Source of the DNA: Escherichia phage LYE-01
Length of the DNA: 64,000 nucleotides
Direction: 5' to 3' (one strand)
Sequence record: PQ303785.1
Shown one piece after another: positions 32,964 through 38,534 of this stretch. The position numbers and the translations under genes were made by a program. The notes beneath the pieces are model-generated. The model searched no databases. It was not told the DNA's origin and was given only the letters and a program-made list of their open reading frames with translations. Numbering within the stretch: position 1 is the first letter of the stretch; each line of letters opens with the position of its first letter.

Positions 32964-33206
32964 ATGAGATTACAACGCCAGAGCATCAAAGATTCAGAAG
33001 TTAGAGGTAAATGGTATTTTAATATCATCGGTAAAGATTCTGAACTCGTTGAAAAAGCTGAACATCTTTTACGTGATATGGGATGGGAAGATGAATGCGA
33101 TGGATGCCCTCTTTATGAGGATGGAGAAAGCGCAGGATTCTGGATTTATCATTCTGACGTCGATCAGTTTAAAGCTGATTGGAAAATTGTGAAAAAGTCT
33201 GTTTGA
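32964..33206 (+). CDS. hypothetical protein
   Basis: ORF track; early promoter and AAGGAG SD upstream. Confidence 0.5.
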   Translation: MRLQRQSIKDSEVRGKWYFNIIGKDSELVEKAEHLLRDMGWEDECDGCPLYEDGESAGFWIYHSDVDQFKADWKIVKKSV

Positions 33207-33216
33207 GGAAAATATT

Positions 33217-33552
33217 ATGTCTGACATTCACGTAACTGGAATTGCCCAAGTAAACATCCGTTGCCAATTTAAAACTGTACCTGGGGTGACTCATATTACT
33301 TTATCACACGACCCATATTCTCGTGGAAGACAGATAACTGGCGTAATTAAGTTTTTCGGTGGAATTGGCGGAAACGAATTTACTATAGGCGATGACGAAA
33401 TTGTTGGCTGTAAACTAAAAGTTCAAAAGGGCGTGTTAGAACTTTTTAGTGATGAAGTTTTTGATGAAATCTCACGAGCAGTTAATAAAGGAATGTTAAC
33501 GTTAATCAAAATGATTAAAGCCAGTGGATATGTTCCCGATCCTTTATATTAG
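33217..33552 (+). CDS. hypothetical protein
   Basis: ORF track. Confidence 0.5.
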   Translation: MSDIHVTGIAQVNIRCQFKTVPGVTHITLSHDPYSRGRQITGVIKFFGGIGGNEFTIGDDEIVGCKLKVQKGVLELFSDEVFDEISRAVNKGMLTLIKMIKASGYVPDPLY

Positions 33553-33560
33553 GAGATAAT

Positions 33561-34387
<827 letters not shown>

Positions 34388-34407
34388 AATAACGCGTGGC
34401 GGAAAAT

Positions 34408-34755
34408 ATGAACTTTAATTATTATCCTATTCTATTAGAAAAAGACGCAAAACAACCAAAATGGCAGGGTCCTCAGTTTATTAAAGGCGTCTATCAATTA
34501 GTAGTTCCTAAAGACAAGATTTATAGTAGTTGTTTCACTGAATCCGCTTGCAGTATTTTCGGTAATAGTTCTCCGTATTGGAATTTTGATATAAAGCTGG
34601 ATAGAAATATTGATATTTGGTTGAAAGCTATGGATATTGACAATATCACGTTTGATGAGAATAATTATCATATTATTGGTCGTTTTTCCAAACGTGGTAA
34701 AGAATTATATTTCACGCCTGAAATTGAAAGAAAATTTGACGCTAAACCGTATTGA
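34408..34755 (+). CDS. hypothetical 115-aa protein between frd and td
   Basis: Track ORF starts GTG 34396; first ATG 34408; no recognisable motif. Confidence 0.45.
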   Translation: MNFNYYPILLEKDAKQPKWQGPQFIKGVYQLVVPKDKIYSSCFTESACSIFGNSSPYWNFDIKLDRNIDIWLKAMDIDNITFDENNYHIIGRFSKRGKELYFTPEIERKFDAKPY

Positions 34756-34800
34756 TTATTTAGCTTCATAAAATGTATTATAATTTATATAAGGTACTAA

Positions 34801-35661
34801 ATGAAACAATACCAAGATTTAATTAAAGACATTTTTGAAAATGGCTATGAAACTGATGACCGAACAGGCACAGGAACAATTGCTTTGTTCGGTACTAAAT
34901 TACGCTGGGATTTAAGTAAAGGTTTTCCTGCAGTAACAACTAAGAAGCTCGCCTGGAAAGCTTGCATTGCTGAGCTAATATGGTTTTTATCAGGAAGCAC
35001 AAATGTCAATGATTTACGATTAATTCAGCATGATTCATTAATTCAAGGCAAAACAGTCTGGGATGAAAATTACGAAAATCAAGCAAAAGATTTAGGATAC
35101 CATAGCGGTGAACTTGGTCCAATTTATGGAAAACAATGGCGTGATTTTGGCGGTGTAGACCAAATTATAGAAGTTATTGATCGTATTAAAAAACTGCCGA
35201 ATGATAGGCGTCAAATTGTTTCTGCATGGAATCCAGCTGAACTTAAATATATGGCATTACCGCCTTGTCATATGTTCTATCAGTTTAATGTGCGTAATGG
35301 CTATTTGGATTTGCAGTGGTATCAAAGAAGTGTTGACGTGTTCTTGGGCTTGCCATTCAACATTGCATCATATGCTGCATTAGTTCATATTGTAGCTAAG
35401 ATGTGTAATCTTATTCCAGGAGATTTGATATTTTCTGGTGGTAATACTCATATCTATATGAATCACGTAGAACAATGTAAAGAAATTTTGCGTCGTGAAC
35501 CTATGGATTTATGCGAATTACAATTAAAATTTCCAGATGAATTTGATGAATGGGACACAGAATCACAGGTATTTTGGTTGAGTCAATTCGCAAAGCCGCA
35601 TAATTTTGTTCTTAACAACTATGTATCTCACCCTCCTATTAAAGGAAAAATGGCGGTGTAA
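34801..35661 (+). CDS. td: thymidylate synthase, uninterrupted (no intron)
   Basis: 286 aa continuous ORF; LPPCH active-site motif. Confidence 0.9.
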   Translation: MKQYQDLIKDIFENGYETDDRTGTGTIALFGTKLRWDLSKGFPAVTTKKLAWKACIAELIWFLSGSTNVNDLRLIQHDSLIQGKTVWDENYENQAKDLGYHSGELGPIYGKQWRDFGGVDQIIEVIDRIKKLPNDRRQIVSAWNPAELKYMALPPCHMFYQFNVRNGYLDLQWYQRSVDVFLGLPFNIASYAALVHIVAKMCNLIPGDLIFSGGNTHIYMNHVEQCKEILRREPMDLCELQLKFPDEFDEWDTESQVFWLSQFAKPHNFVLNNYVSHPPIKGKMAV

Positions 35662-35684
35662 TTAATTATTAATTGTGAGGATAT

Positions 35685-35948
35685 ATGATTTTACGATTTA
35701 AAGATACTTCTGGTGTAGTTCTTTTTACACTTCCTAACCCAAGCGAGTTAGAAGTTCCAGGACCAAATCAGCCTATTATAATTTATGGCAAAAAATATTA
35801 TACTCATAAAATGACTCGTGAGTATTTTGATAATAAAATTTCTACGGTTAAAACTTCTTCAGATTGTTATTATGATATTACTGTTTTAACGGAAAAACAA
35901 TATGACGAATTATTACCGCGCGGGCCGTCTATGCCAAGTAGTGAATAA
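35685..35948 (+). CDS. hypothetical protein (nrdA.2 position)
   Basis: ORF track. Confidence 0.45.
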
Positions 35949-36228
35949 ATATAAATCCGACTTTGATGTTAATATTCACCGTGGTACATTTTGGGGAAAT
36001 TACGTCGGTAAAGATGCTGGCAGCCGGGAGGCTGCCATTGAATTATTCAAAAAAGATTTTATACGTCGAATTAAATCCGGAGAAATAACTAAAGCACATT
36101 TAGAGCCTTTACGTGGAATGAGGCTAGGATGCACATGTAAACCAAAGCCGTGTCATGGTGATATAATAGCTCATATAGTTAACCGATTGTTTAAAGACGA
36201 TTTTCAAGTTGAGGACTTATGCAATTAA
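35902..36228 (+). CDS. hypothetical protein, DUF4326-like (nrdA.1 position)
   Basis: [13 protein letters not shown] motif resembles DUF4326; from memory. Confidence 0.4.
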
Positions 36229-38483
36229 TTAATGTTATCAAAAGTAGTGGTGTTTCTCAAAGCTTTGACCCGCAAAAAATTATTAAAGTTTTATCTTGGG
36301 CAGCTGAAGGAACATCTGTAGATCCTTATGAATTATATGAAAATATTAAATCATATCTCCGTGATGGAATGACAACTGATGACATTCAGACTATTGTCAT
36401 TAAGGCTGCTGCGAATTCTATTTCAGTTGAAGAGCCTGATTATCAATACGTAGCTGCACGCTGTTTAATGTTTGCTCTTCGTAAACATGTGTACGGACAA
36501 TATGAACCACGTTCATTTATTGACCATATTTCTTACTGTGTAAATGAAGGTAAATACGACCCTGAACTGTTGTCAAAATATTCAGCAGAAGAAATTACAT
36601 TTTTAGAATCAAAAATTAAGCACGAACGGGATATGGAATTTACTTATTCCGGGGCGATGCAATTAAAAGAAAAATATCTCGTTAAAGATAAAACCACTGG
36701 TCAAATTTATGAAACTCCACAGCTTGCATTTATGACTATTGGAATGGCATTGCATCAAGATGAACCTGTTGACAGATTAAAACATGTTATTCGTTTTTAT
36801 GAAGCAGTATCTACTCGACAGATTTCATTGCCAACTCCTATTATGGCTGGTTGTCGTACTCCAACTCGGCAGTTTAGTTCATGCGTTGTTATTGAGGCAG
36901 GTGATTCGCTGAAGTCTATCAACAAAGCTTCTGCTTCAATTGTTGAATATATCTCCAAACGAGCTGGAATTGGCATTAACGTTGGTATGATTCGTGCCGA
37001 AGGTTCTAAGATTGGCACAGGTGAAGTGCGTCATACTGGTGTTATTCCTTTTTGGAAACATTTTCAGACTGCTGTTAAATCATGTTCACAGGGCGGAATT
37101 CGTGGCGGCGCTGCTACTGCTTATTATCCTATTTGGCATTTGGAAGTTGAAAATCTTCTCGTTTTGAAAAATAACAAAGGCGTAGAAGAAAACCGTATCC
37201 GTCATATGGATTATGGTGTCCAGCTGAATGATTTGATGATGGAACGTTTTGGAAAGAACGACTACATTACTTTGTTCAGTCCGCATGAAATGGGTGGCGA
37301 GCTTTATTATTCTTATTTTAAAGACCAAGACCGTTTCCGTGAATTATACGAAGCAGCAGAAAAAGATCCTAATATTCGTAAAAAGCGTATTAAAGCTCGT
37401 GAACTATTTGAATTGCTCATGACTGAACGCTCAGGAACAGCAAGGATTTATGTGCAGTTCATTGATAATACGAATAACTATACTCCGTTTATTCGTGAAA
37501 AGGCACCTATTCGTCAGAGTAACTTGTGTTGTGAAATTGCTATTCCAACAAATGATGTGAATAGTCCTGATGCTGAAATTGGATTGTGCACGTTATCTGC
37601 ATTTGTGTTGGATAACTTCGATTGGCAAGACCAAGATAAAATTAATGAATTAGCAGAAGTTCAAGTTCGCGCTCTTGATAATCTTTTGGATTACCAAGGA
37701 TATCCAGTTCCTGAAGCAGAAAAAGCTAAAAAGCGTCGAAATCTTGGTGTAGGTGTTACCAACTATGCAGCTTGGCTGGCAAGTAACTTTGCTTCTTATG
37801 AAGATGCTAACGATTTAACACATGAACTATTTGAGAGATTACAGTATGGACTCATTAAAGCATCCATTAAGCTCGCCAAAGAAAAAGGACCTTGCGAATA
37901 TTATTCAGACACTCGTTGGTCTCGAGGCGAATTACCTATCGACTGGTACAATAAAAAGATTGACCAAATCGCAGCTCCAAAATACGTTTGTGACTGGTCG
38001 GCGCTGCGGGAAGACCTTAAGCTCTTTGGCATCCGTAATAGCACATTATCAGCACTTATGCCATGTGAGTCATCTTCCCAAGTTTCTAACAGTACAAACG
38101 GTATCGAGCCTCCACGTGGACCAGTCTCTGTTAAAGAATCAAAAGAGGGTTCCTTTAATCAAGTCGTGCCCAATATTGAACATAACATAGACCTATATGA
38201 TTATACGTGGAAATTAGCTAAGAAAGGTAATAAACCTTATCTTACGCAGGTAGCTATTATGCTGAAATGGGTATGTCAATCAGCTTCAGCGAATACATAT
38301 TATGACCCGCAGATTTTTCCAAAAGGAAAGGTTCCAATGTCTGTAATGATTGATGACCTTTTGTACTTTTGGTATTTTGGCGGAAAAAATTTCTATTATC
38401 ATAATACCCGTGATGGTTCTGGTACTGATGATTATGAAATAGAAACTCCAAAAGCTGAAGATTGTTCATCCTGTAAATTATGA
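36219..38483 (+). CDS. nrdA: ribonucleotide reductase large subunit
   Basis: 754 aa; ATP-cone N-terminus; catalytic cysteines. Confidence 0.9.
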   Translation: MQLINVIKSSGVSQSFDPQKIIKVLSWAAEGTSVDPYELYENIKSYLRDGMTTDDIQTIVIKAAANSISVEEPDYQYVAARCLMFALRKHVYGQYEPRSFIDHISYCVNEGKYDPELLSKYSAEEITFLESKIKHERDMEFTYSGAMQLKEKYLVKDKTTGQIYETPQLAFMTIGMALHQDEPVDRLKHVIRFYEAVSTRQISLPTPIMAGCRTPTRQFSSCVVIEAGDSLKSINKASASIVEYISKRAGIGINVGMIRAEGSKIGTGEVRHTGVIPFWKHFQTAVKSCSQGGIRGGAATAYYPIWHLEVENLLVLKNNKGVEENRIRHMDYGVQLNDLMMERFGKNDYITLFSPHEMGGELYYSYFKDQDRFRELYEAAEKDPNIRKKRIKARELFELLMTERSGTARIYVQFIDNTNNYTPFIREKAPIRQSNLCCEIAIPTNDVNSPDAEIGLCTLSAFVLDNFDWQDQDKINELAEVQVRALDNLLDYQGYPVPEAEKAKKRRNLGVGVTNYAAWLASNFASYEDANDLTHELFERLQYGLIKASIKLAKEKGPCEYYSDTRWSRGELPIDWYNKKIDQIAAPKYVCDWSALREDLKLFGIRNSTLSALMPCESSSQVSNSTNGIEPPRGPVSVKESKEGSFNQVVPNIEHNIDLYDYTWKLAKKGNKPYLTQVAIMLKWVCQSASANTYYDPQIFPKGKVPMSVMIDDLLYFWYFGGKNFYYHNTRDGSGTDDYEIETPKAEDCSSCKL

Positions 38484-38534
38484 TATAATTTGACTCACGG
38501 ACGAGTCACTATCTATTAACTAAGTGGAAAATTT

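Follow-up and report, generated by a model that had tools for sequence, protein, structure and literature searches.

A conserved orphan gene between frd and td of T-even phages, probably lost from T4 by deletion

Introduction

In bacteriophage T4 (NC_000866), frd (145109–145690) and td (start at 145112) overlap by 4 bp (ATGA), and td is interrupted by an intron that carries I-TevI. Elsewhere, T4-type genomes contain indel hot spots flanked by promoter/stem-loop (PeSL) cassettes [PMC2839356, PMC4122927], in which an early promoter of the form TTTACW-N17-TAYWAT adjoins a stem-loop [PMC4122927]. Here, we describe the frd–td junction of Escherichia phage LYE-01 (PQ303785.1), analysed within a stretch of 64,000 nt that we call the window. 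In this genome, frd stops at 34387 and td starts at 34801, leaving an interval of 413 bp (34388–34800), and td is uninterrupted (the window–T4 alignment skips T4 144564–143544). A preliminary description of the same DNA had placed an open reading frame (ORF) of 115–119 codons in the interval and had stated that the two genes overlap in T4; its coordinates for the frd end, the td start, the ORF and the 413-bp interval are exact, and the overlap is indeed present, at 4 bp, in NC_000866. We refer to this ORF as orfA. Its biochemical role left aside, we consider it about 80% probable that orfA is what we describe below, namely an ancestral gene of this locus that T4 lost by deletion.

Layout of the frd–td interval

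The features discussed below are collected in Table 1. The window frd is 94% identical to T4 frd at the nucleotide level. ATG 34408 is taken as the start of orfA because homologues open with MNFNYYP, and the annotation of the T2-like phage SV76 has a ribosome-binding site at the position equivalent to the GGCGGA sequence upstream of it.

Table 1. Features of the frd–td region (positions in the window)
Feature	Position	Strand	Remarks
DUF7247 protein (PHROG 3566)	33217–33552		111 aa
PHROG 3183 protein	33561–33803		80 aa
frd (dihydrofolate reductase)	33806–34387	+	193 aa; Pfam DHFR_1, E 1.6e-19; PHROG 316
9-bp direct repeat TAAATGAAA, left copy	34381–34389	+	last frd codon, frd stop and two more bases; found by script
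Candidate weak Shine-Dalgarno-like GGCGGA	34398–34403	+	4 nt 5′ of ATG 34408; putative role
orfA (PHROG 1928 orphan family)	34408–34755	+	115 aa; ATG start, alternative GTG at 34396
Putative sigma-70-like site within orfA	34637–34665	+	TTGACA-17-AATAAT, 11/12
A/T-rich orfA–td spacer	34756–34800	+	45 bp; TATAAT, TTGATT-18-TATTAT, MotA-box-like tAGCTTcA, td Shine-Dalgarno AAGG
td Shine-Dalgarno AAGG	34791–34794	+	inside the 45-bp spacer
9-bp direct repeat TAAATGAAA, right copy	34798–34806	+	3 nt of leader and first two td codons
td (thymidylate synthase)	34801–35661	+	286 aa, no group I intron; Pfam Thymidylat_synt, E 7.9e-95

Coding status of orfA and regulatory signals in the spacer

Judged from its sequence, orfA is a genuine protein-coding gene. 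A frame of at least 115 codons stays open in 5 of 5000 shuffles of the 413-bp interval (36% G+C DNA), and dN/dS values of 0.015 against T2, 0.011 against T6 and 0.046 against NHEP36 indicate strong purifying selection, the comparison with T2 giving 13 synonymous differences and one non-synonymous difference. The HMM of PHROG 1928 matches orfA with an E value of 8.6e-35, aligning residues 8–115 with profile positions 2–125 of 126, and the window gene has the distinguishing marks of this family, including the motifs QxxW, (H/K)GxY and GRFxKxG...F, all of the residues Q16, W19, G27, Y29, G91, R92, F93, K95, G97 and F102, and a place directly 3′ of frd, a synteny that is kept in the 13 loci inspected.

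Alternatively, the frame could be open by chance, with the interval serving as a regulatory spacer that gives td its own promoter, and the spacer does contain promoter-like sequences. These are TATAAT at 34779–34784, TTGATT-18-TATTAT at 34752–34781, which is the best site of the spacer (9/12), and the MotA-box-like TTTAGCTTCA at 34759–34768 (tAGCTTcA at 34761–34768, hence AGCTTCA), which has the GCTTCA core, with A instead of the T of the consensus, and is followed by TATAAT 10 bp downstream and TAATTT 12 bp downstream. The T4 MotA box, (a/t)(a/t)(a/t)TGCTT(t/c)A, lies 11–13 bp 5′ of a –10 element TAnnnT, a middle-promoter definition with which the geometry in the spacer agrees only approximately. 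However, 21 sigma-70-like sites occur in 33000–36500, compared with 15.6 ± 4.5 in shuffles, so that the TATAAT noted in the preliminary description is present as sequence without being significant over shuffles. Any –10 box of the spacer would leave td a leader of roughly 8–13 nt, and NHEP36, whose spacer is only 15 bp long, is without most of this sequence. With its motifs at chance frequency and awkwardly spaced, a putative td promoter in the spacer is unproven. When these points are set beside dN/dS values of 0.01–0.05, protein conservation that reaches down to 25% identity with invariant residues, and an AlphaFold pLDDT of 89, the chance-frame explanation retains next to no probability.

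Neither a significant fold (z –1.1) nor an Rfam family was detected in the spacer RNA; the one sub-threshold Rfam match, which involves a Drosophila lncRNA model and the other strand, was set aside as chance. No terminator-like sites were found in 33000–36500, which makes read-through from upstream promoters the default, and for the same reason, together with the stop/start overlaps seen in other genera, orfA would be co-transcribed with frd and td as an early/middle gene.

One position of orfA sets the window apart. At codon 78 (34639–34641) the window has GAC (Asp), whereas T2, T6, NHEP36 and the metagenomic contig L015 have GGC or GGT (Gly), so that the window protein differs from the T2/T6-type proteins by a private Gly78Asp at a glycine that 38 of 45 family members have; its best database match is 99.1% identical, and none reaches 100%. 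The same window-private G-to-A change turns TTGGCA (T2; TTGGTA in T6) into a perfect –35 sequence, TTGACA, and the internal site that results outscores all other sigma-70-like sites of the 3.5 kb scanned. The change could have created an internal promoter directed into td, could be a private mutation with a mildly harmful effect, or could be an error of sequencing.

Distribution and annotation

The preliminary description had regarded the ORF as extra, and it is T4 that proves to be the exception (about 362 records with orfA versus 32 with the T4 junction). A 601-bp junction query matched 536 phage records, 354 of them with at least 80% query coverage and with identity up to 98.8%, and among these matches the ORF is annotated as a hypothetical protein in T2, RB27, RB32, RB33 and AR1. 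A tblastn search with the orfA protein returned 579 records, of which 362 are at 90% identity or above and 217 below 60%. The hypothetical protein of T2, T6, RB3, RB14, RB32 (RB32ORF229c), AR1 and PP01 is identical to the window protein at 114 of 115 residues (99.1%) and has the same position, flanks and 45-bp spacer.

The gene is thus already known, being annotated in hundreds of genomes, though it is uncharacterised. Every source name in a 154-member orfA cluster is ‘hypothetical protein’, and across sources the family names are either this or an evident mislabel; the literature searched contained no paper discussing orfA, RB32ORF229c or the phrase ‘frd and td’. In the 2003 T2 record AY310907, the ORF is present in the sequence and is left unannotated. 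Other labels include ‘putative homing endonuclease’ (AugustSocin, FelixPlatter and KarlGJung), ‘putative glucose-1-phosphate adenylyltransferase’ (SF2-1 and pSe_SNUABM_01) and ‘dihydrofolate reductase’ or ‘putative dihydrofolate reductase’ (Kelasse and ADUt), none of which is supported by a domain search. Identities as an NTP_transferase or a DHFR were rejected, as orfA has no Pfam match, is 115 aa long and has no similarity to the neighbouring DHFR. Annotation of the region is uneven in other respects as well: the T6 record AP018814 labels I-TevI ‘RNA polymerase sigma factor for late transcription’ and splits td into two CDS.

Synteny and paralogues across genera

Homologues of orfA lie directly 3′ of frd in at least eight Tevenvirinae genera, at 25–65% identity, and in metagenomic contigs. 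Those at 25–47% identity, found after frd in Kanagawavirus (Q7622, PEi20), Jiaodavirus (Mineola), Gelderlandvirus (Melville), Moonvirus (Merlin) and Kagamiyamavirus (EcS1), have start and stop codons that overlap or abut frd, and the homologues after frd in metagenomic T4-like contigs are 31–65% identical to the window protein. In most loci outside the T-even phages, a second ORF of 113–123 aa, orfB, stands between the orfA homologue and td, and tblastn searches with orfB add Karamvirus (CC31), Tegunavirus (TG1) and Winklervirus (CHI14, Kc304), among others. Profile comparison indicates that the two are paralogues (hhalign probability 99.1%, E 1.5e-18). The orfB proteins of Kanagawa-, Gelderland-, Moon- and Kagamiyamavirus and of metagenomic T4-like contigs belong to the family of the window orfA (PHROG 1928, E 7.9e-33 for orfB of L015) and have the QKxW, HGxY and GRFxKxGxxxxF motifs in common with it; what sets them apart from orfA is a stretch of some 20 additional residues (PTIxxYKxxPxxY) that follows the W motif, and their location 3′ of orfA and 5′ of td, which in the window is taken up by the 45-bp spacer alone. 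A six-frame HMM search of the window found no second family member, the only match being orfA itself.

An HMM search of 1.84 billion representative proteins gave 42 clusters, nearly all of 95–139 aa, with two short fragments; the matches to two large proteins (P0042 and P0044) were judged spurious, these being Ig-like tandem-repeat proteins matched in many short stretches. Within everything examined, the PHROG 1928 family is confined to T4-like phages and phage-like metagenomic contigs.

In most genera other than Tequatrovirus (L003–L008, L015–L017), frd-orfA-orfB-td forms an unbroken chain with overlaps of 1–35 nt, and this stop/start arrangement implies translational coupling of what would be the whole set. 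Among the alleles seen, only the T2-type allele of the window has orfA set apart on both sides, by 20 nt upstream and 45 nt downstream. The ancestral position of orfA would be directly 3′ of frd, usually in translational overlap with it; in many loci orfB, its tandem paralogue, comes next, and in some a third small gene (orfC) also precedes td. The preliminary description had written of a usually tight operon; it is not tight in that frd abuts td, the tightness being usually achieved through one to three small, translationally overlapped ORFs between the two genes.

Alleles of the frd–td slot

In Tequatrovirus-like genomes, the frd–td slot has three alleles, containing orfA, containing orfC, or empty as at the T4 junction. 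The orfA allele is found in about 362 Tequatrovirus-like records, and the window is the standard T2/T6-type form of it, with orfA only and the 45-bp spacer. In the orfC allele, an unrelated basic ORF of 68 aa (PHROG 9550; MSNKLKVKDVP...) overlaps frd by ATGA and abuts td; it is present in fPS-90, fFiEco06, JS98 and others, about 135 Tequatrovirus/Dhakavirus records carrying it at 95% identity or above. The orfC loci inspected are L021 and L022 (both 1321–1527) and L015 (4670–4879). That orfC might be a truncated orfA was discarded, BLASTP showing no similarity. Some Klebsiella phages have a version of orfC that is 79% identical, and the unrelated Phapecoctavirus phages (phAPEC8, ESCO13) one that is about 43% identical, a distribution that suggests movement between phage families.

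The empty T4 junction was found in 32 records with a 45-bp probe able to seed solely on a T4-type junction, and many of these are T4 itself, the others being RB55, RB59, HY03, SG1 and a few more. The metagenomic contig L015 has the order frd-orfA-orfB-orfC-td, and since it carries all three small genes, the Tequatrovirus alleles look like different remnants of a fuller cassette. The T4 overlap is probably a derived minority state, and orfA the common, ancestral one.

Probable loss of orfA from T4 and RB69

The junctions themselves point to how the gene was probably lost. The end of frd and the start of td have an exact 9-mer, TAAATGAAA, in common (Table 1), and removing one copy together with the intervening sequence (417 bp) from the window yields ...GTATAAATGAAACAATACC..., which is the T4 junction; over the flanking positions, the predicted deletion product and T4 are identical at 286 of 300. 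In other words, the T4 sequence ...TATAAATGAAACAATACC... is exactly what the window leaves once the segment between the copies is gone, and T4, with its 4-bp ATGA overlap, differs from the window in lacking the 417 bp, the flanking genes being 94–96% identical at the nucleotide level. The 5′ end of T4 td is identical to that of the orfA-type allele and different from that of the orfC type. In T4, illegitimate recombination or replication slippage between the two TAAATGAAA copies would remove the 417 bp, and the resemblance of the frd stop region to the td start region would be a matter of happenstance. A search with the PHROG 1928 HMM against the six-frame translation of the whole T4 genome found no family member (best E 0.48), in line with the preliminary description, which held the ORF to be absent from T4. 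Its further reading of the interval as an indel is sound relative to T4 and is not supported as to polarity and rarity, since the orfA state is the commoner one and the T4 overlap was found in 32 records.

In Mosigvirus, RB69, like T4, has a 4-bp frd/td overlap (144383–144386; locus L023). Its close relative NHEP36 (frd 97.8% and td 94.4% identical; region compared, 1198–1568 in locus L019) keeps orfA, which overlaps frd by ATGA and is flanked by copies of TAAATGAA 363 bp apart, compared with 417 bp for the T-even repeats. The empty junction of RB69 thus appears to be a separate loss, of 363 bp, at the same motif as in T4. Given that the same microhomology would have served for two deletions that differ in length, and given the synteny across genera, an ancestral gene with recurrent loss is much more parsimonious than recurrent precise insertion. 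The frd–td flanks are mosaic among the alleles compared, and we infer the direction of change, loss and not gain, from these comparisons. As orfA is missing from T4 and RB69, the phages would be able to grow on laboratory hosts without it, even though most lineages retain it under strong purifying selection.

The opposite polarity would make the ORF a lineage-specific insertion into an ancestrally overlapping junction, brought in by a mobile element or as a free-standing gene resembling those of homing endonucleases. Free-standing endonuclease genes (seg and mob) are plentiful in T4-type genomes, where they are inserted between conserved genes (T4 annotation); the slot itself comes in three alleles; and the endonuclease label given to the ORF in AugustSocin, FelixPlatter and KarlGJung would fit. 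However, neither Pfam and NCBIfam nor the PHROG functional assignment indicates a nuclease or any other domain, and the 115-aa beta-barrel model has no structural match to GIY-YIG or HNH proteins. Moreover, at least eight genera have a homologue in this slot, at 25–65% identity, which fits vertical descent; the empty state is rare; and the indel is bounded by a 9-bp direct repeat that the ends of the genes themselves form, a hallmark of deletion. We regard an insertion as very improbable.

The td intron

The preliminary description had also observed that the ORF coincides with the absence of the td intron. A mechanistic link is conceivable, for example if homing of I-TevI co-converted the roughly 550 bp of upstream exon and flank and carried the ORF-less junction along with it. 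The junction is only about 550 bp from the intron insertion site, a distance within typical co-conversion tracts of I-TevI homing, and those T4-type records that were also listed when I-TevI was searched for (T4, RB59 and, in part, G28) all contain it, whole or in part. Against this, a composite query of orfA and I-TevI found 79 records with both, including T6, RB3, IME340, ECML-134 and pSe_SNUABM_01, and IME340 is the closest match to the window junction. In addition, the orfC-type phages fPS-90 and fFiEco06 carry the td intron, Melville combines orfA and orfB with a td intron containing an endonuclease, and RB69 has neither orfA nor the intron. Since all combinations exist, the coincidence is incidental; a mechanistic link is scarcely less improbable than an insertion, and at most there is loose linkage of orfA and the intron within the T4 clade.

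Protein model and possible functions

A family alignment of 45 sequences (A4) was used for AlphaFold2 and for conservation. The model of orfA (pLDDT 89.2, pTM 0.82) is predicted to be a small beta-barrel with one helix, having strands at residues 6–12, 27–34, 38–40, 48–50, 62–64, 80–82, 86–96 and 99–104 and the helix at 68–76. In the alignment, W19, G91, K95 and G97 are invariant and Q16, G27, Y29, F93 and F102 nearly so; the GRFxKxG motif forms the last beta-hairpin of the model, and the family is mildly basic (median pI 8.8). A search of BFVD with the structure returned only uncharacterised proteins of T4-like phages (PM2, Muldoon, Cronus, Aeromonas Ah1 and phiAS5), a PDB sequence profile search gave chance matches only (E 0.1 or worse), and the PHROG 1928 barrel has no clear relative among solved structures. 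Pfam, NCBIfam and PADLOC returned no domain for orfA, orfB or orfC, in agreement with the preliminary description, which had recognised no motif in the ORF. A free-standing homing endonuclease, either a GIY-YIG protein of the Seg type or an HNH protein of the Mob type, was considered and rejected, with no Pfam or NCBIfam domain at E values up to 1 and no nuclease among the structural matches.

As a tentative suggestion, which we think more likely wrong than right, orfA may be a small OB-like binding module for nucleic acid, a nucleotide-like ligand or a partner protein, one that assists the DNA-precursor or replication apparatus without being indispensable to it. The possible counterparts among known folds are the nucleic-acid-binding OB-fold domains (S1, CSD, RPA, HIN and RecO N-terminal), an OB fold being a closed beta-barrel of five strands that has a helix between strands 3 and 4. 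The 13-kDa, mildly basic barrel would bind through a conserved aromatic and basic surface (W19, Y29, R92, F93, K95 and F102) and would be co-expressed, in most genera with translational coupling, with DHFR and thymidylate synthase.

About equally likely is that orfA, although real, serves in host takeover or anti-defence and has nothing to do with nucleotide metabolism, in which case it would adjoin frd for historical reasons only. It is small, non-essential, variably present and without homologues outside phages, traits that are typical of the early ‘accessory’ genes of T-even phages; the neighbouring small ORFs (frd.1–3, DUF7247, nrdA.1 and nrdA.2) are equally uncharacterised, and the use of the slot by the unrelated orfC (PHROG 9550), which has 43% identity to its Phapecoctavirus relatives, argues for a cargo site. 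Searches returned no match to defence-related models in a library that covers defence systems and not anti-defence proteins, and the unusually stable synteny with frd, with stop/start overlap across genera, speaks against such a role, as does purifying selection that stays strong over a range of hosts reaching from Escherichia to Edwardsiella and Erwinia, which fits a phage-internal role better than a host-specific arms race.

The accessory-module suggestion has a bolder version, which we consider a long shot: orfA and orfB could be an unrecognised part of the T-even thymidylate/DNA-precursor machinery, made, by way of translational coupling, in fixed proportion with DHFR and thymidylate synthase and perhaps tethering both to nucleic acid or gp32. 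If this were true, a component of that machinery would have been overlooked for 60 years because the model phage, T4, deleted it.

Neighbouring differences from T4

Several other differences from T4 lie close to the frd–td junction. Between frd.1 and frd, a second indel of about 512 bp (33274–33785) is absent from T4; the two ORFs in this region are listed in Table 1, and T2-like SV76 has only the 80-aa gene, metagenomic T4-like contigs having both the 80-aa and the 111-aa types. By this comparison, T4 is again the reduced genome. The window is also without the td intron and its I-TevI (insertion point 35348/35353), without the mobE/nrdB.1 segment (38480–38534, 55 bp instead of about 700 bp) and without the nrdB intron and its I-TevIII (39208/39211). 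Going by these differences, the nucleotide-metabolism cluster of the window is a T2-like, mobile-element-poor version.

Significance and comparison with known systems

The locus carries a caution, as T4, the reference of the group, is atypical here. The frd/td overlap of the textbooks seems to be the scar of a secondary deletion and not an ancestral operon design, and genetics centred on T4 could never reveal that a conserved orphan fold stands between two enzymes of the thymidylate cycle. Among the conserved T-even genes, orfA is one of many that are uncharacterised, and its position between these two enzymes is stable and translationally coupled. The losses in T4 and RB69 further suggest that overlapping stop/start signals (TAAATGAA) can serve as microhomology through which the gene between them is deleted.

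Among the closest described systems are the PeSL-flanked hot spots. The spacer does not resemble a PeSL cassette: its best site, TTGATT-N18-TATTAT, scores 9/12, it has no terminator-like stem-loop, and its fold has a z of –1.1. Unlike PeSL elements, the repeats of the window are 8–9 bp long and built from the genes' own stop/start overlap sequence. What the locus has in common with the PeSL hot spots is that close T4-type relatives differ in small, non-essential ORFs between conserved genes, the gain or loss of which proceeds by recombination at short repeated sequences.
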